Positions 13,951 to 34,481 of a stretch of DNA of 64,000 nt are shown piece after piece. The stretch lies in contig JAFWBP010000016.1 in assembly GCA_017507045.1 (NCBI GenBank), positions 231-64,230 of the forward strand, written 5' to 3'. The notes beneath the pieces are model-generated. The model was not told where the DNA came from. It searched no databases and worked only from the letters and a program-made list of their open reading frames with translations. The DNA comes from Clostridia bacterium. Its GTDB lineage: Bacteria > Bacillota > Clostridia > Christensenellales > Borkfalkiaceae. Positions within the stretch are counted from its first letter, which is position 1; each line of letters opens with the position of its first letter. Made by a program: the position numbers and the translations under genes.

Positions 13951-14813
13951 TGCTTATGAAATCGGCAATTATCGATATCGGATCAAATTCCGTTCGCCTC
14001 ATGCTTTGGGCGGACGGAAAATCTTTATATAAGAAGGTAGAAACCACCCGCCTTGGCGAGGGTATCGCACAAATTCCCATCCTGCGGGAAGAAGCTATTT
14101 CCCGCACAATAGCAGCAATTGCTCAATATGCATTGGAAGCGAATCAAGAAAATGCTCGTATTTTTGCTTTTGCAACGGCTGCTGTGCGTGTTGCGGAAAA
14201 CGGCGCGGAATTTTGCAACCGTGTAAAGCACGCTTGCGGCGTAGAGGTTGAGGTTATTTCCGGCGAAGAGGAAGCAAAACTCGCTTTTTTGGGCGCACTT
14301 TCCGAAGAGGATGGCGGCATCATTGATATTGGCGGCGCCAGCACCGAGATAAGCTATCGAGTAGGGGCGAGAACGGCGTTTTCTATCAGTTTGCCGCTGG
14401 GCGCCGTTCGCCTGTACGATGATTGCGGTGAGGATGAAAATGAGCTTCTTCGTAAGATCTCCCATTCCCTCAGGTCATTAGAAGGCGCACGACCAATGAA
14501 AACGACGTATGCCGTAGGCGGCACGGCTTCCACCTTAGCATGCATAAGGTGCGGACTCACCGTTTATAACGGCGCACAGCTACAAGGCCTTTCCCTTTCT
14601 GCAGAATGGGTGGAAAGGGCGGCAAAAAAGCTACTGAGTATGACAGCACAGGAGCGCCGCACGGTGCCCGGAATGGATATTCGCCGCGTAGATATTATTG
14701 GAGGCGGCGCATTGCTCCTTGCTGAAATTATGAAAAAACTCGGGCTAGCCGAGGTAAAATTTTCCGATCGTGATAATCTTGAAGGTTATTGCGTTCTTAG
14801 GAGGATCGTATGA
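13950..14813 (+). CDS. Ppx/GppA family phosphatase
   Basis: The N-terminus AIIDIGSNSVRLMLW and the GGGA/DIGGAST actin-fold motifs fit the family. TAATG overlap with divIC. Confidence 0.85.
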   Translation: MLMKSAIIDIGSNSVRLMLWADGKSLYKKVETTRLGEGIAQIPILREEAISRTIAAIAQYALEANQENARIFAFATAAVRVAENGAEFCNRVKHACGVEVEVISGEEEAKLAFLGALSEEDGGIIDIGGASTEISYRVGARTAFSISLPLGAVRLYDDCGEDENELLRKISHSLRSLEGARPMKTTYAVGGTASTLACIRCGLTVYNGAQLQGLSLSAEWVERAAKKLLSMTAQERRTVPGMDIRRVDIIGGGALLLAEIMKKLGLAEVKFSDRDNLEGYCVLRRIV

Positions 14814-15730
14814 AGGGACAAGTTAAAAATAATTTTTACGCAGTAACTTCCATTCTATTGATGGTAGTTGCACTCATCTGCAGCTTCTTTATGTGGCAAG
14901 CTGCCGGGGGAAAAGATTGGTATGTGCTACTCATAGCCGTAATCGTGCTGATTCTTTTTCCGCTCAATATTATTCTGCATGAGGCGGGGCACATAATTGC
15001 AGGGCAAATTATGGACATGCAATTCGTTTCCGTACGTATCGGGCATATGCTTGTTTGGCGCGAAGAAGGGAAGCTGAAGTTCAAGGTTTCGCCTGCTCAA
15101 AGTGTTGCAGGTGCGAGCACGTTCTTCCCGAAATCGCCTGAAAATATGCGTCAGCGCATGCTCATCGTCACGCTCGGTGGGGCAATTTGCAATTTTATCT
15201 ACGCACTTCTTCTGTTCATTCTCTATTTTGCTTTGTCGCATCATTCATTGCTAACGTTCTTTGCGATGTTTGCACCTCTTTCCCTCTGCGAAGGAATCGT
15301 TGCACTCATCCCCGTAGTTCTTCCTGCCGGAAAGACGGATGGTGCCGTAGCGTACGGGCTTATTGAAAAAAACGCCGATGAAAGGGTAATGCTTGCCGTG
15401 CTTGCGGCGCAGGGGATCCTTAATACCAAAACGTTTGATGAAGTTCCCGAAAAACTTCTCTTCCGCGCACCTATGGTGAGGGAAGATCTTCCGGCGCGGC
15501 ACGCTCAGCTTCTGCTGCAGGTGCAGTATTTGCTTCACACGCAGAAAGAGGAGGAGGCGAAGAAGGTGCTTGATCGCCTTGGCTCGCTCTACGATTATCT
15601 TTCGGAAGAGGCTATTGAAGAAGCGGAGCACTATCGCACCTACTTTGCAGGTTCCTTCCAGCCGCGAAACACTCCGCTGTACGGCGTGAACGAATTGGAA
15701 ACAGAGCTTGCACAGCGCTTGAAAAAATAA
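14810..15730 (+). CDS. Site-2 protease family (M50-like) membrane metalloprotease with helical-repeat C-terminal domain
   Basis: HEAGH sits in a TM helix, with a second motif LIPVVLPAGKTDGA (NxxPxxxxDG-like). ATGA overlap with ppx. Confidence 0.65.
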   Translation: MKGQVKNNFYAVTSILLMVVALICSFFMWQAAGGKDWYVLLIAVIVLILFPLNIILHEAGHIIAGQIMDMQFVSVRIGHMLVWREEGKLKFKVSPAQSVAGASTFFPKSPENMRQRMLIVTLGGAICNFIYALLLFILYFALSHHSLLTFFAMFAPLSLCEGIVALIPVVLPAGKTDGAVAYGLIEKNADERVMLAVLAAQGILNTKTFDEVPEKLLFRAPMVREDLPARHAQLLLQVQYLLHTQKEEEAKKVLDRLGSLYDYLSEEAIEEAEHYRTYFAGSFQPRNTPLYGVNELETELAQRLKK

Positions 15731-18633: not shown

Positions 18634-18762
18634 CTGCTATTTTTAAGTTTATGCGATGTATTATGTGTTACATAAGCAATATATTATGTCAGGCATAATA
18701 ATTAAAATCGGGTTTTTCGTGCAAAAAACTCATAATAACATCGTAATTTACCCTTGGAATAA

Positions 18763-18791
18763 TTTACAAGATTAAACAGATATATTATAAT
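18763..18791 (+). promoter_or_regulatory. SigmaA-type promoter upstream of the DUF1934-MBL-rho operon
   Basis: TTTACA, a 17-nt spacer, then TATAAT (18786-18791). Confidence 0.6.
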
Positions 18792-18800
18792 AGGTGGCAG

Positions 18801-19193
18801 ATGAAACGGTGTACCATCCGTATTGAAACAACCGTGGACGGGCACACCTCCCTCTTTTCGGGGGTAGGGAGCTTTGAATGGGCGGAAAACGGCGCAACAA
18901 TTTGCTATTTGATTGATGGCGACGAGGCGCTTATCCGTATGGAAAAAGAACGCCTCACGATGGAGCGGCAGGGCGCTACCGCGCTTTTCGCGACCTTTTC
19001 TGAAGGGGAGCGCACGGAAATGGTGTTAGCGCTCGGGTTACAGCGCGGCATAATTCCTCTGCGCACGAACAGGTATCACGTCGATTGCAAGGAACGCGCC
19101 TCTTTCGTCAATCTTAATTACGATTTGCTTTCAGAAAAAGCTTCAACAAATTTTCAATTAAAAATTTCTATTATTTTTTCGAGGGAATCATGA
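18801..19193 (+). CDS. DUF1934 (YwiB-like) beta-barrel protein
   Basis: 130 aa; the pattern I.I.T..DG....F.G.....ENG.TI.Y....DEALIRM....LTMERQG fits the family. Confidence 0.6.
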   Translation: MKRCTIRIETTVDGHTSLFSGVGSFEWAENGATICYLIDGDEALIRMEKERLTMERQGATALFATFSEGERTEMVLALGLQRGIIPLRTNRYHVDCKERASFVNLNYDLLSEKASTNFQLKISIIFSRES

Positions 19194-21279: not shown

Positions 21280-21298
21280 GCAACCGTCATAAATATTA

Positions 21299-21330
21299 CG
21301 CCCCGACTGATCGAACAGTCGGGGCGTTTT
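21299..21330. terminator. Strong intrinsic terminator shared by convergent rho and the PadR-fusion gene
   Basis: 11-bp GC stem CGCCCCGACTG/CAGTCGGGGCG followed by TTTT. Confidence 0.85.
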
Positions 21331-21343
21331 CTATTATTTTCTT

Positions 21344-23698
21344 TTAATCCTTCTTAGGACGGGTAAGGAAGTAGTAGCAAATTCCGAATACAACGATTCC
21401 GAAGAAGAAAACGATGGGCACTACTACGTAGGTGGCAAGTGCAGATGCGCTCGTGAAATCAATATTGACGCCAAGCGCCACAATTAATGTAATGATCACG
21501 CAAAGGATATAGATGATGATTGCAGTTTCCAGCACGGGTGCGCGCTTACGGATGGCGCGCTCGCCGAAATGGTTGATGGAGGCGATCCACGTAACGAGAG
21601 TAAGTGCCAAACCTGCACACCAAATGAAGTAAGGGTGGAAAAGGGGAATTGCATATTGTTCGCGAATTCCGAAAATCACACATCCCTCAATGAAACAAAG
21701 GCAGAGCACAACGATAGAGGAGAAGAACAAAGCTTTGCCCTTGTGAACGGTGTTTACGTAATCCTCCTGCTTCTGGGTAGCAGGTTTGCCTCCGGCAGTT
21801 GTAATTCGAATGCCATCTTGTGCGGCTTTCTCTTCAAGGTCGCCAAAGTTTACGCCATTAAGCGAGCGAGCACCCGCACCTTCGTAAGTTTCACGCGAGG
21901 GATGCGTGGCAGAAAAGATCTGATGAATTACGGGGCGATAATCACGCGGGGCCTCATACGCGGGCTCTTCCGCGGAAGCTTCGGCGATCGGCGTTGCATA
22001 GTAGCCGTAATCATCGTTTTTCGGAGCCGTGGGAGGCGGTGTATTCACGAGGTCGCGGTAATTTTTATGAATTAGTTGCTGCTCGCGCTGACGGAAAATT
22101 GCTTCCTGCTCTTCGATGATGCGCTTTTCGCGGAGTTCAAGCTCTTCTGCGTGAGCGCGGCGCTCTGCTTCAATGAGCTCATCGCGTTGGCGCAGCATCG
22201 CGTTGAGGCGTGCGTGTTCTGCCATAAAATAGGCTTCGCGCTCTTGAAGTTCCTGTTCGCGGTTTAAAAGTTGCTCTTCTGCCTGCGCGGTGAGTTCCTG
22301 CTTACGTGCGATCTCTTCATCGAGCAAGAGGCGGCGCTGTGCTTCTTCCTCATCAAGCGCCTGTCTGCGCGCGATCTCTTCTTCATCAAGGATGCGGCGG
22401 CGTTCCGATTCCTCAGCCTCGAGAGCAAGTCGCTTGGCGAGTTCTTCATCCTCAAGCGCTTGCTTTCTTGCACTTTCCTCTTCTTCGAGTGCCTGCATAC
22501 GCATGGATTCTTCATCTTCAAGCGCTTGCTTTCTTGCGCTTTCCTCTTCTTCAAAGAGGCGCACGCGCTCTGCAAATGCAGAAGCTTCTGCGGCGTGAGC
22601 GGCTTCATCGATTGCGGCAGAACGTTCTGCTGCAATCATATTTTCTGCGTGGATTGCTTCAATTTCCTTGCGCTTCTCTTCTAAAAGACGTTCGCGCTCG
22701 GCAATTTCCTTTTCGCGCCAATCGCATTCTGTCTGATAGGCTGAATTCCTCGCGCGAATCTCATCTTCAAAGCGCTGTTTATTTTCATCGAGAGCAAGGC
22801 GCTCGTTTTCAAGCCGGGCTACCTTTTCTTCTTCGAAGCGCTGTTTTTCTTCTTCAAAGGCAAGGCGCTCGCTTTCAAGTTGGGCTACCTTTTCTTCTTC
22901 GAAGCGCTGTTTTTCTTCTTCAAAGGCAAGGCGCTCGTTTTCAAGCTGGGCTACCTTTTCTTCTTCGAAGCGCTGTTTTTCTTCTTCAAAGGCAAGGCGC
23001 TCGCTTTCAAGCTGGGCTACCTTTTCTTCTTCGAAGCGCTGTTTTTCTTCTTCGAAGGCAAGGCGCTCGCTTTCAAGCTGGGCTGCCTTTTCTTCTTCGA
23101 AGCGCTGTTTTTCTTCTTCGAAGGTAAGGCGTTCATTTTCCAGTTGAGCAACCTGTTCCTCGTATTCGGCTGCGAGCCTCGTGCGCTCGGCGCTATCATC
23201 AAAGATGGGCTCGTAATCAAGATCTTCAGCTTCGCCTTCGCGAGAGGGAACACGGGAAGTGGTGCTTCTCAGCATACGCATATTAACGGCGGTGGGGGCA
23301 GGATTCGCGAAATCGAAATCTTTATCGGAGATGAGCGAATCGATAACGGTGCGCGAGTACTCCCATTCCGCCTGATTGGTTTCCGAAATTTCTTTGCCTT
23401 CTTCTGTGAGGGAGAAGTATTTTCTTCTACCGCCGCTCACGGAGCCGCCCCAATAAGAAGTGATGTATCCTTCCTTTTCAAGGCGCTTTAAGGCGCTGTA
23501 AAGGGAGGGCTCTTTGATGCTATATTGCCCGTGGCTTTTGCGCTCGATTTCTTCCTTGATGGCATAGCCGTACTTATCTCCATCGTAGAGGGCGCGCAGG
23601 ATAATCGTATTAATGTGTCCTCTGATGAGGTCGGAAGAAATGGCCTTGCCTTTGCCTTCTTCTGCTTCCTCTTCGGGCGTCGTCATATCTTCGTCCAT
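21344..23698 (-). CDS. PadR-family wHTH fused to a long charged repeat helix and a 4-TM C-terminal anchor
   Basis: N-terminus: IRGHINTIILRALYDGDKYGYAIKEEI...SLYSALKRLEKEGYITSYW...RRKYFSLTEEG. Middle: about 390 aa of E/K/R/Q/A repeats. C-terminus: four hydrophobic helices. AAGGAGG RBS and a consensus promoter. Confidence 0.8.
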   Translation of the reverse strand: MDEDMTTPEEEAEEGKGKAISSDLIRGHINTIILRALYDGDKYGYAIKEEIERKSHGQYSIKEPSLYSALKRLEKEGYITSYWGGSVSGGRRKYFSLTEEGKEISETNQAEWEYSRTVIDSLISDKDFDFANPAPTAVNMRMLRSTTSRVPSREGEAEDLDYEPIFDDSAERTRLAAEYEEQVAQLENERLTFEEEKQRFEEEKAAQLESERLAFEEEKQRFEEEKVAQLESERLAFEEEKQRFEEEKVAQLENERLAFEEEKQRFEEEKVAQLESERLAFEEEKQRFEEEKVARLENERLALDENKQRFEDEIRARNSAYQTECDWREKEIAERERLLEEKRKEIEAIHAENMIAAERSAAIDEAAHAAEASAFAERVRLFEEEESARKQALEDEESMRMQALEEEESARKQALEDEELAKRLALEAEESERRRILDEEEIARRQALDEEEAQRRLLLDEEIARKQELTAQAEEQLLNREQELQEREAYFMAEHARLNAMLRQRDELIEAERRAHAEELELREKRIIEEQEAIFRQREQQLIHKNYRDLVNTPPPTAPKNDDYGYYATPIAEASAEEPAYEAPRDYRPVIHQIFSATHPSRETYEGAGARSLNGVNFGDLEEKAAQDGIRITTAGGKPATQKQEDYVNTVHKGKALFFSSIVVLCLCFIEGCVIFGIREQYAIPLFHPYFIWCAGLALTLVTWIASINHFGERAIRKRAPVLETAIIIYILCVIITLIVALGVNIDFTSASALATYVVVPIVFFFGIVVFGICYYFLTRPKKD
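22795..23124. repeat. Five near-identical 66-bp tandem repeats (22-aa units) inside the PadR-fusion CDS, flanked by degenerate copies
   Basis: Units start at 22795, 22861, 22927, 22993 and 23059 with 1-3 substitutions each. They encode LAFEEEKQRFEEEKVAQLE(S/N)ER. Confidence 0.95.
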
Positions 23699-23721
23699 GG
23701 TTATCCTCCTTTGTTTGTTAT

Positions 23722-23750
23722 ATTATATAACATTTGTCGGAATTTGTCAA
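23722..23750 (-). promoter_or_regulatory. Consensus sigmaA promoter of the PadR-fusion gene
   Basis: On the minus strand: TTGACA (23750-23745), a 17-nt spacer, then TATAAT (23727-23722). Confidence 0.7.
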
Positions 23751-23836
23751 TGGGTGAGAAGTACTATGTTAGACATAATTGGCAAAATTTTGCAAGTTTT
23801 TTCATAGTACGCTTCATTTCAGCATAAAACGGTGTT

Positions 23837-24910
23837 ATGAAGGGATTGCGCGGAATATGTATCATTATTGGTGGGGCAATCGGTGCCGGTTTTATTTCGG
23901 GGGCAGAACTTATTCGGTTCTTTCACACACAGTACTTCTTTTTTCCCGTAATGCTTTCCGCGTTATTTTTCTTTTTGCAGTGTGCGCTCTTTCTTTGGCT
24001 TGGAAGAACGCACGGCGGCTACGAGGGGGCGCTGAATATACTTTTTAAAAGGGCGGCGCCGGCTGTTCGAGCGGTTATCGTTCTGTGTGCGTTTATTCCG
24101 TGTGCAGGGATGCTCGCCGGGCTCGATGCGCTTCTTCCCGCCCTCAAGCCACTTCTTTCGCTCACGGGGCTTTTGCTCTCTGCCGCAGTGCTTCAAAGGG
24201 GAACGGGGGGGATATCTTTTGTAAACCTTTTGCTCGTGCCCATACTTCTCGGCTTTGTATTCATGTGCGGCAGTGGAGAAAAGGCTTTCTATTACCCCTT
24301 GCTTCCCGAGGGAACCACGGGCTTTTTCGGAGGCGCTCTCTATGCGGGTATGAACGCGTTTTTGCTTGCCCCTGTTTTGCTTGATGCCGGTAGAGATGTG
24401 AAAAATCCGGTGCTTCTTTCTGCGGTTGCAGCGGCAGTGATCGCTTTGAGCGCGCTCACCATTCTCGGATGTGTTTATCGCGAGGGCGCAGGGGCGCTCA
24501 ACGCCGAGATGCCTTTTTTATACGTTATGCGAGGGGAAGCAGTTTTCTCCGTTGCCGTTGCACTTGCCGTAATGACCTCTCTTGCATCCTCGCTTTATCC
24601 GCTCATGCAATCTTGCAACCGATTCAAAAGGCGAAAAAAGTACGCCGCAAAGGCGTGTGTGCTCCTTGCGGCGTTTTGTATTTCCCGTTTGGGTTTTGTG
24701 GGGATCATCTCCCTTCTTTATCCCGTTTTAGGGGGTTTGGGATTGCTTTTATCAATGTTCTGCGCTCTTAACGAGTATCTTTTCAAGCAGCACCACAAGA
24801 AAGTACATTCCAGCGGCGAGAACGCAGAGAATCAGCGTTGCGCTCATCACAAGATCGAGCCGGAACACCTGCCCACCGTACACGATGAGGTAGCCCAGCC
24901 CCGCCCTTGA
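23837..24910 (+). CDS. YkvI-like polytopic membrane protein (putative transporter)
   Basis: IIIGGAIGAGFISGAELIRFF at the N-terminus, about 10 TM. The last 40 or so residues run antisense into the next gene and are probably not conserved. Confidence 0.55.
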   Translation: MKGLRGICIIIGGAIGAGFISGAELIRFFHTQYFFFPVMLSALFFFLQCALFLWLGRTHGGYEGALNILFKRAAPAVRAVIVLCAFIPCAGMLAGLDALLPALKPLLSLTGLLLSAAVLQRGTGGISFVNLLLVPILLGFVFMCGSGEKAFYYPLLPEGTTGFFGGALYAGMNAFLLAPVLLDAGRDVKNPVLLSAVAAAVIALSALTILGCVYREGAGALNAEMPFLYVMRGEAVFSVAVALAVMTSLASSLYPLMQSCNRFKRRKKYAAKACVLLAAFCISRLGFVGIISLLYPVLGGLGLLLSMFCALNEYLFKQHHKKVHSSGENAENQRCAHHKIEPEHLPTVHDEVAQPRP

Positions 24911-32878: not shown

Positions 32879-34381
32879 ATGCGAGGAATTCCAACGGCTG
32901 TAAACAGAATCAGAAGAAAGATATTTGCGGAAATTGCACGCATTGCCTTTGAATCGGAGGATGTGCGCGGCGATTTGGAAGCAGTGCCTTATTCGCTCAC
33001 GCCTTCCGAACGCCCACAGTTTCGCGAAAGCATCTACCGCGAGCGCGCCATAGCATCCGAGCGCGTTCGCCTTGCCATGGGGCTTTCGCTCAATCCGCAG
33101 AATCAACCGGTAAATCCCACCAATGGACTGGAAGAGAGCAATATCTCCGAGCGCTACTATGAACCTCCGCTCATGCAGGTGATTCCCTCGGCATGCGATA
33201 AATGTGAGGAAAACTCCTTTGTAGTGAGCAACCATTGCAGGCAATGTATTGCGCGTTACTGCGTTGAATCTTGCCCGGTGGACGCAGTTTACGTTCGGGA
33301 TGACGGTTACGCCGAGATTGATCAGGAAAAATGTATTCGCTGCGGAAAGTGCAAAGCGGCTTGCCCGTACGATGCGATCACCCATCAAATTCGCCCGTGC
33401 GCCGCGGCGTGCGGCGTGAACGCCATCTCCAGTGATGAATTGGGGCGCGCGTACATTCATCCCGAAAAGTGTGTGGGGTGTGGGCAATGCATGGTCACCT
33501 GCCCGTTTGGCGCAATTGCCGATAAATCACAGCTCTATCAACTCATTCGAGCGCTTAAGGGTGAAGATGAGATCATCGCGGAAGTTGCGCCTGCTATCGT
33601 TGGGCAGTTTGGGGAAAACGTAACCCTCGGGCAGCTCATAACTGCGCTAAAAAAACTCGGTTTTTCCGATGTTGTGGAAGTGGCGCACGGCGCCGACAGC
33701 GCTGCAAAAGCTGAGGCACGCACTTATGCCACGAAGGTAGCAACGGGAAAGCTGCCTTATCTGCTCACTTCCTGTTGCCCCAGCTGGAGTATGCTCGCAA
33801 AGCGAGAAATTTCCGATAAGGTAGAGCTCGTTTCGAGCGAGCTAACGCCTATGGTGGCAACGGCGCAAAAAATCAAAGAGAAATCTCCCAAGGCTCACGT
33901 TGTATTCATTGGCCCGTGTGCGGCAAAAAAACTGGAAGCACTGCGAAAGGACGTGCGCAGCGAGGTTGAATTCGTAATTACTTTCGAGGAGCTTGCCGCG
34001 ATCTTCGAAGCGCGAGGGATTGATCCTGCCACTTGCACCGAAGAGGTGTGGAACGGGGCTACCGCGGCGGGAAGGGGATACGGCGCGGCCGGCGGCGTTG
34101 CAGATGCGATTGAACGCTGTGTGCGCGAATATTATCCCGATACCGAAGTGAAGATCGAGCACGCGGAAGGGCTTTTCGATTGCAGAAAGATGCTCACACT
34201 CGCCAAACACGGTAAAAAGAACGGATGTCTCATCGAAGGAATGGGGTGTCCGGGCGGCTGTGCTGGCGGCGCCGGCGTGAATATACCTGTGGCAAAAGGG
34301 GTGCGAGCCGTGCAAAAATTTGCCGCAGATACGCAAAAAAAGCTCCCTGATGCCCAGTCAGAGAGCGAAAATAAGAATTAA
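32879..34381 (+). CDS. Monomeric [FeFe]-hydrogenase family protein with two 4Fe-4S ferredoxin motifs
   Basis: CxxCxxCxxxCP occurs twice. H-cluster motifs: TSCCPSW (L1), GPCAAKKLE (L2, G in place of the usual M) and EGMGCPGGCAGG (L3). Confidence 0.8.
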   Translation: MRGIPTAVNRIRRKIFAEIARIAFESEDVRGDLEAVPYSLTPSERPQFRESIYRERAIASERVRLAMGLSLNPQNQPVNPTNGLEESNISERYYEPPLMQVIPSACDKCEENSFVVSNHCRQCIARYCVESCPVDAVYVRDDGYAEIDQEKCIRCGKCKAACPYDAITHQIRPCAAACGVNAISSDELGRAYIHPEKCVGCGQCMVTCPFGAIADKSQLYQLIRALKGEDEIIAEVAPAIVGQFGENVTLGQLITALKKLGFSDVVEVAHGADSAAKAEARTYATKVATGKLPYLLTSCCPSWSMLAKREISDKVELVSSELTPMVATAQKIKEKSPKAHVVFIGPCAAKKLEALRKDVRSEVEFVITFEELAAIFEARGIDPATCTEEVWNGATAAGRGYGAAGGVADAIERCVREYYPDTEVKIEHAEGLFDCRKMLTLAKHGKKNGCLIEGMGCPGGCAGGAGVNIPVAKGVRAVQKFAADTQKKLPDAQSESENKN

Positions 34382-34442
34382 GCATAGTACTATGTGAGGC
34401 ATAATACTCATCAAACAGATAAAAAATTTGCTTTATCACATC

Positions 34443-34471
34443 AAAAAAGCGCCCTGCTCGGGGCGCTTTTT
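34443..34471. terminator. Bidirectional intrinsic terminator (hydrogenase / rplI)
   Basis: A6, then stem AGCGCCC/GGGCGCT, then T5. Confidence 0.8.
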
Positions 34472-34481
34472 GCTTGTTCTT

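Follow-up and report, generated by a model that had tools for sequence, protein, structure and literature searches.

A family of PadR-type regulators in uncultured Clostridia that joins an LmrR-like head to a four-helix membrane domain through an acidic spacer of variable length

Proteins that combine a DNA-binding domain and at least one transmembrane (TM) region in a single chain are widespread: a survey of transmembrane transcription regulators (TTRs) counted 50,302 of them, more than half without a recognisable sensor domain (PMC10269533). We describe here such a protein with a PadR head, in which both the DNA-binding domain and the TM regions are predicted. It is encoded at positions 21344–23698 on the (−) strand of a 64,000-nt stretch of Clostridia bacterium DNA (contig JAFWBP010000016.1, positions 231 to 64,230; "the window" below), where an open reading frame (ORF) of 784 codons plus stop starts at an ATG and encodes a PadR head, an acidic spacer and a four-TM (4-TM) anchor. 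All coordinates given below for parts of this gene refer to the (−) strand of the window. The supplement of the TTR survey counts 158 proteins with a PadR domain, which are not described in the paper; the examples listed among them are 113–114 aa long, so that, as far as these examples go, the PadR TTRs of the survey are not the family treated here (PMC10269533). A literature search for a described membrane-bound PadR found none. The names attached to the family in source databases are generic only (PadR family transcriptional regulator, helix-turn-helix transcriptional regulator, predicted transcriptional regulator, hypothetical protein), in agreement with the first-pass annotation of this DNA, which knew of no characterised PadR with this architecture.

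For the head, the described systems to compare are the PadR-s2 proteins LmrR of Lactococcus lactis and cdPadR1 of C. difficile (CDR20291_0991). The likeness covers the head fold (36–46% identity), the dimerisation helix with its conserved Trp, and a likely autoregulatory inverted repeat with GTACTATGT and ATGT/ACAT elements. LmrR and cdPadR1 are soluble and ~110–125 aa long, whereas the protein described here has 660 aa extra (a conserved short motif, the acidic spacer, a juxtamembrane motif and the 4-TM domain), and in its candidate operator 3 nt, not 8–10, separate the inner half-sites (ATGT-N3-ACAT).

For the membrane part, BcrR of Enterococcus faecalis is the closest functional analogue by its described layout. 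This membrane-bound one-component bacitracin sensor has an N-terminal XRE-type helix-turn-helix (HTH), four C-terminal TM helices and no sizeable external domain. It works from the membrane without cleavage; its linker is short and its target transporter operon is adjacent. An HTH head and four TM helices are common to both proteins; here, however, the head is of the PadR type, the linker is acidic and 180–600 aa long, and the window search for the palindrome described below gave no match at the adjacent ABC-transporter genes. Regulators of the ToxR/TcpP/CadC type combine an OmpR-type head with one TM helix and a sensor domain in the periplasm. They resemble the present protein in having a cytoplasmic winged-helix head tethered to the membrane; the present protein differs in that its head is of the PadR type, it has four TM helices, and next to nothing of it is external. 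It has been reported that such regulators locate their chromosomal targets while anchored (PMC7888679, PMC6320335, PMC10269533). The nearest described pairing of PadR with the membrane is the HAAS-PadR-like winged-HTH (wHTH) dyad, a predicted two-gene system with a defined HAAS helical domain and a standalone PadR (PMC11237479). Both couple the function of a PadR head to a multi-TM module, but here the two parts are in one polypeptide, with no HAAS domain fused or neighbouring and no standalone PadR gene or other partner adjacent.

The architecture was confirmed as real and conserved, with more than 1,100 proteins having a head, an acidic spacer and a 4-TM anchor. The full-length search gave 1150 homologues at E<1e-5. 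The best 120 of these (545–969 aa) all have the same layout: PF03551, a charged region that separates the head from the anchor, and four hydrophobic segments in the last ~130 residues. The long ORF is therefore not an assembly artefact of its repeats, a flaw that the first-pass annotation had itself named as fatal to its proposal. A scan of species-representative genomes confirmed 99 loci in at least 99 species-level genomes. The 80 loci listed are all from uncultured Clostridia, including several Candidatus Gallimonas (placed in Clostridia incertae sedis in the NCBI taxonomy) and metagenome-assembled genomes labelled Christensenellaceae/Christensenella; they come from the guts of rabbit, chicken, mouse and other hosts. 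So far unstudied, the family is widespread and well defined, within a class already known to be common.

Residues 20–123 (23330–23641) make up the PadR-s2 (LmrR-like) winged-helix head with its C-terminal dimerisation helix, as indicated by Pfam, phmmer against the PDB, AlphaFold2 (AF2) and Foldseek. PF03551 (Pfam PadR) matched residues 33–103 with E=3e-19 (69.2 bits vs. a cut-off of 27). In the PDB, residues 20–127 matched 9qbc (E=5e-26), 1xma and LmrR 3f8b/3f8c (E=1e-21). The AF2 head (residues 22–123) has a predicted local distance difference test score (pLDDT) of 80–95 and consists of helices 22–38, 44–54 and 63–75, a beta wing, and helix 99–123. By Foldseek, the full-length model matched PDB structures through the head only (LmrR, 1xma, 9qbc and cdPadR1 5dym; 36–46% identity, target-normalised TM-score 0.7–0.84). 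W112 was invariant in 100/100 family sequences and aligns with the conserved Trp of LmrR helix α4; in total, 38 head positions were invariant in 100 sequences. The protein thus has the wHTH and the single C-terminal dimerisation helix with conserved Trp that define PadR-s2, but not the small soluble form of ~110 aa, being 784 aa long with four predicted TM helices.

The conserved 4-TM domain occupies residues 653–779 (21362–21742), as judged by hydropathy, AF2 and a positive-inside count. Hydropathy places the hydrophobic segments at ~655–677, 690–709, 724–745 and 755–778, and AF2 models these segments as helices with pLDDT >94 (>90 for the four helices in the model of the C-terminal domain). 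Two parts of the first-pass description, a PadR winged helix at residues ~20–110 and four hydrophobic helices at the extreme C-terminus, were borne out by these analyses. Averaged over the family, K+R counts are 3.1 before TM1, 3.7 in the TM2-TM3 loop and 2.5 in the tail (cytoplasmic sum 9.2), compared with 1.1 and 0.6 in the external loops (sum 1.7). Because of this 9.2 vs. 1.7 distribution, the predicted topology is N-in/C-in with external loops of ~10–12 residues. TM1 is entered via a conserved VHKGKALF, and TM4 contains an invariant Pro.

When the last 200 residues were searched against 1.84 billion protein representatives, the 4-TM domain gave 129 matches, every one of them at a protein C-terminus. 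Pfam detected the PadR domain in 61/99 of the more distant matches, and a family-specific hidden Markov model found the same head in essentially every full-length member. The three short matches lacking PadR that were checked (loci L089–L091) all begin at the edge of a 1–2.4 kb contig and look like fragments, not standalone genes. A split form of the system, with a standalone 4-TM gene beside a small PadR gene, was considered and rejected once these contig-edge starts had been checked. By these searches, the head and the 4-TM anchor pair exclusively. Pfam and NCBIfam on the full protein and on 32 C-terminal domains gave nothing beyond PadR and scattered hydrophobic noise, and Foldseek of the C-terminal model against the PDB gave no match better than E=3. 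As a side observation from L089–L091, short-read assembly may often break upstream of the anchor at these loci, leaving many truncated catalogue entries.

Between head and anchor lies the acidic helical spacer, residues 172–551 (22046–23185), which appears as helices 172–332 and 347–551 with pLDDT ~70–85 in the full-length AF2 model (100-sequence alignment). Residues 170–575 consist of 27% E, 14% A, 12% R, 10% L, 7% Q and 5% K; over residues 170–560 the net charge is −50 and LIVMFW make up 21%. The first-pass wording for 170–560, almost pure E/K/R/Q/A, was right about a charged, E-rich region and somewhat overstated, given the 21% hydrophobic residues. It had also reported 22-aa and 11-aa repeats, and both were located. 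A 66-bp tandem DNA repeat at 22764–23131 (368 bp; Tandem Repeats Finder, 94% matches, no indels) encodes the 22-aa repeat QRFEEEKVAQLESERLAFEEEK in 5.6 copies, a copy number taken from this one assembly alone. Eight 11-aa repeats, LFEEEESARKQ-like, occupy residues 381–468 (22295–22558), as defined by the protein register and a periodicity peak at 5.45 residues. Long ORFs on the strand opposite the spacer (22076–23491 (+), e.g., 22306–23127 with 273 aa and 22880–23491 with 203 aa) are by-products of the low-complexity repeat and no genes.

Opposite-charge i/i+4 pairs are enriched in the spacer (69 vs. 41±5 in shuffled sequences, z ~5.5). Its hydrophobic residues show periodicities of 7.3 and 5.45 residues, and a 3.5-residue hydrophobic period was looked for in the spacer without success. 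A charged single helix seems to describe the spacer better than a canonical coiled coil would. It resembles ER/K single alpha helices in its long predicted uninterrupted helices, the enriched i/i+4 pairs and the missing heptad periodicity. However, ER/K helices are near neutral and poor in hydrophobic residues, whereas the spacer has a net charge of −50 and 21% hydrophobics, and the equivalent region is Pro-rich in sister clades, where it cannot be a single alpha helix. At 0.15 nm per residue, the two modelled helices would together reach roughly 55 nm in full extension, or half of that if they folded into a hairpin.

Spacer length ranges from 22 to ~600 aa over the whole family and its sequence is not conserved. 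In close relatives the spacers are ~180–600 aa long, always net acidic (−17 to −92), with few Pro or Gly; in distant relatives they are 22–550 aa long, still acidic and often Pro-rich (up to 19% Pro). Some members have spacers of merely 22–60 aa. Length also differs between strains in which head and anchor are ~100% identical: in one comparison an exact 88-aa tandem duplication lies in the spacer (881 vs. 969 aa), and in another the spacer differs by 112 aa (666 vs. 554 aa). Differences of 32–33 aa and 11 aa at strain level were less common. Across these sequences acidity is the conserved property of the spacer, and its length is under no tight constraint. The molecular ruler proposed on first reading, with its reach set by repeat number, is weakened by the range of 22 to ~600 aa, by the 88- and 112-aa shifts between strains and by the Pro-rich, not helical, spacers of distant clades, which argue for a tether of no fixed measure; the looser tether idea survives.

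Conserved short motifs stand on either side of the spacer. The first, SDKDFDFxNPAPTAVNMRxLRxxTSRVP, was recognised by family conservation just after the head, at residues 124–160 (23219–23329). Its D129, F130, P133, P135, L143 and R149 are kept in 91–97% of 100 members, distant clades included. AF2 predicts the motif to be disordered (pLDDT <55), within a disordered stretch of residues 124–171 in the full-length model. After the spacer comes a Pro/Tyr-rich linker, residues 552–650 (21749–22045), defined by composition and by an alignment of 74 C-termini; the Pro/Tyr-rich part noted earlier is present at residues 552–600. The alignment revealed a DYRxVV motif at residues ~586–592 and a juxtamembrane motif, SLxGxxFxDLExxAAxDGIRIxTAGG, at residues 612–637 (21788–21865; consensus SLDGIDFxDLExRAAxDGIRIxTAGG). 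Y587, A625, D628 and T634 are kept in 91–96% of the wider family. AF2 leaves the linker mostly unstructured, with short helices at 588–596 and 619–627. These motifs and the operator-like palindrome conserved upstream of the gene are new beyond the first-pass annotation.

That annotation had also credited the gene with its own consensus promoter, a strong ribosome-binding site (RBS) and a strong terminator, and all three were located. A promoter scan found a sigma-70-type TTGACA-17-TATAAT with 12/12 matches at 23722–23750 (−); at orthologous loci, 78/79 have this promoter with at most one mismatch per hexamer. The RBS, GGAGG, lies 6 nt ahead of the first ATG of the 784-aa ORF, and for this reason the 784-aa start is preferable to that of the 780-aa database version (P0001). 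Downstream, a bidirectional intrinsic terminator at 21298–21327 (12-bp stem, 9 GC pairs) is common to the gene and the convergent rho.

Upstream regions of 79 orthologues were aligned and 0.93 Mb of related loci (~12 kb per genome) were scanned. Besides the −35, the −10 and the RBS, the conserved upstream block is ATTATGTC[T/A]GACATAGTACT. Its core, TATGTCnGACATA, is a palindrome of 6-1-6 symmetry, found with at most one mismatch within 200 bp upstream of the gene at 74/79 orthologous loci, with its 3' end 12–14 nt from the −35 hexamer in 68 of these 74. Core positions are mostly 80–100% conserved, compared with 30–70% in the outer flanks. In the window, the palindrome reads TATGTTAGACATA on the (+) strand and TATGTCTAACATA on the gene strand (23765–23777, one mismatch to the core) and is placed 14 nt upstream of the −35. 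We infer that it is the operator of this PadR protein. PadR-s2 dimers bind inverted repeats, commonly in their own promoters. ATGT/ACAT is the classic PadR half-site pair, and cdPadR1 (C. difficile PadR-s2) binds its own promoter at boxes with GTACTATGT and TACT/AGTA repeats (PMC5050560). The palindrome is tied to the PadR head because it shares GTACTATGT with these experimentally defined boxes, because it contains the ATGT/ACAT pair, and because a related TATTATGTGTAGCATAATA is present upstream of one distant-clade gene.

A search of the window for the palindrome gave 5 matches vs. 1.16 expected. Two of them lie before the DUF1934-MBL-rho operon, at 18662–18674 (two mismatches) and 18685–18697 (one mismatch). 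Nearly all other palindromes in the 0.93 Mb sit at this one spot, after a YgjP-like gene and ahead of the [tyrA]-DUF1934-MBL-rho operon, and the second location is occupied in ~30 other species. The flanks there extend the symmetry (AGTAyTATGTCnGACATAATA). At loci with tyrA, the palindrome overlaps a −10-like CATAAT, with only ~21–47 nt between it and the called start. The shared motif suggests that the rho-containing operon is under the same control as the PadR gene.

Several other sequence features of the window were observed. A perfect 8-1-8 palindrome, TGTTATATTATATAACA, at 23716–23732 overlaps the −10 box of the PadR gene; it is specific to the window and shows no conservation in orthologous promoters. 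A weak promoter-like TTGGCA-18-CATAGT (23779–23808) abuts the candidate operator. The DUF1934 promoter, TTTACA-17-TATAAT at 18775–18803, has its −10 box ending ~10 nt before the start codon, which implies a very short leader; the same was seen consistently in several species (loci L045, L075 and L084). A palindrome-like TATGTGAGGCATA at 34383–34405, whose extended form agrees with the own-promoter motif at 17/20 positions, lies between the convergent [FeFe] hydrogenase gene (32879–34381) and a gene encoding ribosomal protein L9 (34482–35360, (−)). About 45 nt downstream of it, a strong GC hairpin is followed by a T run (~34447–34472), where Rfam detected nothing; the site may just be a third one for binding, or the stretch 34383–34472 may be a small transcript. 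Over the whole window, Rfam found one tRNA and no match near the gene or the palindromes. In the L9 gene, L9 corresponds to residues 145–290 of a 292-aa ORF and the N-terminal ~140 residues have no family match; a gene fusion, or an ORF called too long, may account for this.

Our preferred reading, to which we assign a probability of about one half, is that the protein is an autoregulated transmembrane one-component transcription regulator that works from the membrane. In the predicted topology the PadR-s2 head faces the cytoplasm, and the four C-terminal helices form a conserved intramembrane domain with almost no external loops. The head dimer most likely binds the palindrome AGTAnTATGTCnGACATAnTACT, 12–14 nt upstream of its own −35 box; autoregulation is proposed because the palindrome sits at the gene's own strong promoter. 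It probably also binds the copies upstream of the [tyrA]-DUF1934-MBL-rho operon. The acidic spacer may serve as a flexible, length-tolerant and electrostatically extended tether, a polyanion that would be repelled by both membrane and DNA, so that an anchored head could extend into the nucleoid by tens of nanometres. Signal input most likely passes via the intramembrane domain, the two conserved short motifs and possibly the LmrR-type ligand site of the head. Rigid signalling along the spacer seems unlikely because of its disordered flanks, its length variation within species and its Pro-rich counterparts in sister clades. The protein would act without being released from the membrane, as described for BcrR, CadC and ToxR. 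A one-component system complete in itself would accord with a monocistronic gene beside which no clade conserves a partner. Over the more than 1,100 proteins, head and anchor stay conserved while the length and composition of the spacer drift.

Several points weigh against this reading. All family members are from uncultured organisms and are known from sequence and models alone. The palindrome could be bound by another factor, and no comparable palindrome was seen in the other two of the three distant-clade loci examined. It is centred near −56, clear of the core promoter where PadR repressors usually sit, so that regulation may be of either sign. The 4-TM domain, which has no characterised relative, may be a sensor or a mere anchor, and the TM1 glutamate is found in just 70% of members.

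Proteolytic release is an unlikely alternative. Here, the protein would be stored at the membrane and cleaved on a signal, within the membrane by an M50/site-2 protease (S2P) or in its disordered conserved motifs by a cytoplasmic protease, so that the PadR head goes to the nucleoid. The two conserved disordered motifs that flank the spacer (124–160 and 586–637) could be cleavage or degron sites, and the window does contain an M50 gene at 14810–15730, which the first-pass annotation had proposed as the S2P-type releasing enzyme. This gene scores weakly, however (37 bits vs. the Pfam threshold of 27, with an NCBIfam match far below threshold and no subfamily), it belongs to a different transcription unit, and 5.6 kb with seven unrelated genes separate it from the PadR gene. 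Nor did it appear in the gene calls, covering ~6 kb, of the three listed orthologous neighbourhoods. The proposed link to this protease was rejected as unsupported; in the window and among the genes called at those three loci, no linked or co-conserved site-2 protease, as would be expected for a substrate of regulated intramembrane proteolysis, was found. Another M50 gene is three genes away in one distant-clade locus, next to scpA, but this looks like ordinary synteny. Typical S2P substrates are single-pass proteins, whereas this anchor is four-pass with ~10–12-residue external loops and offers no obvious site-1 step. A complete PadR-s2 dimer, once freed, would also not need a spacer of 180–600 aa.

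Less probable still is a mainly structural role, in which the head would hold a few specific palindromes near its own locus, the anchor would fix that region to the membrane in a RacA-like manner, and transcriptional effects would be secondary. The layout of head, very long spacer and anchor would suit such a function, as would the strong consensus promoter and the two conserved palindrome locations that flank the gene 5–8 kb apart. Since the TM helices are C-terminal, translation would deliver the head first, and binding in cis could precede membrane insertion. On the other side, spacer length is unconstrained even within species, down to 22–60 aa in some members, and the phasing of the palindrome at 12–14 nt from the −35 points to an interaction with transcription; the palindrome counts cover ~12 kb per genome. 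A sequence-specific variant of this idea, which we consider a long shot, is a leash in place of a conventional regulator: the nascent head would bind the own-gene and rho-operon palindromes in cis, the anchor would then pin the neighbourhood, rho included, and the strain-variable spacer would set the mobility of the locus.

A fused HAAS-PadR pair, with a membrane protein and the PadR that it holds or releases joined in one chain, appears very improbable. Pairing of PadR regulators with multi-TM proteins is a recurrent theme (PMC11237479), and weak DUF1129 matches were obtained in three distant family members. However, no HAAS, DUF1700, DUF1129 or DUF1048 signal was detected in the protein (Pfam E≤1) or in 32 close C-termini (E≤5), no such gene is adjacent in the window or at three orthologous loci, and a standalone PadR is part of what defines the HAAS system (PMC11237479). 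Fusion of a small PadR gene to an unrelated membrane gene through the repeats, in assembly or gene calling, can practically be dismissed: a 66-bp repeat 94% identical over 368 bp could mislead short-read assembly, and three short database fragments begin at short-contig edges as if assembly had broken upstream of the anchor, but more than 1,100 proteins show this layout, in at least 99 species and a large number of independent assemblies; it also occurs where the spacer is very short or lacks repeats, and the gene has an intact reading frame with one promoter and one terminator.

The surroundings of the gene differ among clades. In this clade (the window and three orthologous loci), the gene is monocistronic and located between a variable small membrane-protein gene and the convergent rho; NMT1/ABC transporter genes and valS lie upstream of the small membrane-protein gene, and a ROK gene sometimes lies between the PadR gene and rho. 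In the window, the divergent gene at 23837–24910 (+) encodes a 357-aa multi-pass membrane protein without a Pfam or NCBIfam family, and the gene at this place varies in size and orientation among species. In distant clades, a xerD-like integrase gene and hflX are found upstream and scpB-scpA-M50 or other genes downstream; elsewhere, the neighbours are arginine-biosynthesis genes. At two distant-clade loci (L086 and L088), the xerD-like recombinase gene and hflX upstream are accompanied by scpB-scpA, an M50 peptidase gene, spoIVB and recN downstream, and these chromosome-maintenance neighbours probably reflect plain synteny. A conserved partner gene was sought across the neighbourhoods of the clades and none was found, the neighbours being clade-specific housekeeping genes.

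Membrane-anchored transcription factors are common in surveys, yet few have been studied, and the reason for tethering a DNA-binding protein is still debated. This family offers a clean natural case, with a well-understood LmrR-like head, a conserved intramembrane module of no known kind that lacks an external domain, and a tether that varies from ~20 to ~600 residues and is kept acidic. Its natural tether-length series and sharp candidate operator make reach, target search and membrane signalling directly testable. The family marks a conserved regulatory feature of abundant uncultured gut Clostridia of animals and humans, and hints at control of a rho-containing operon.

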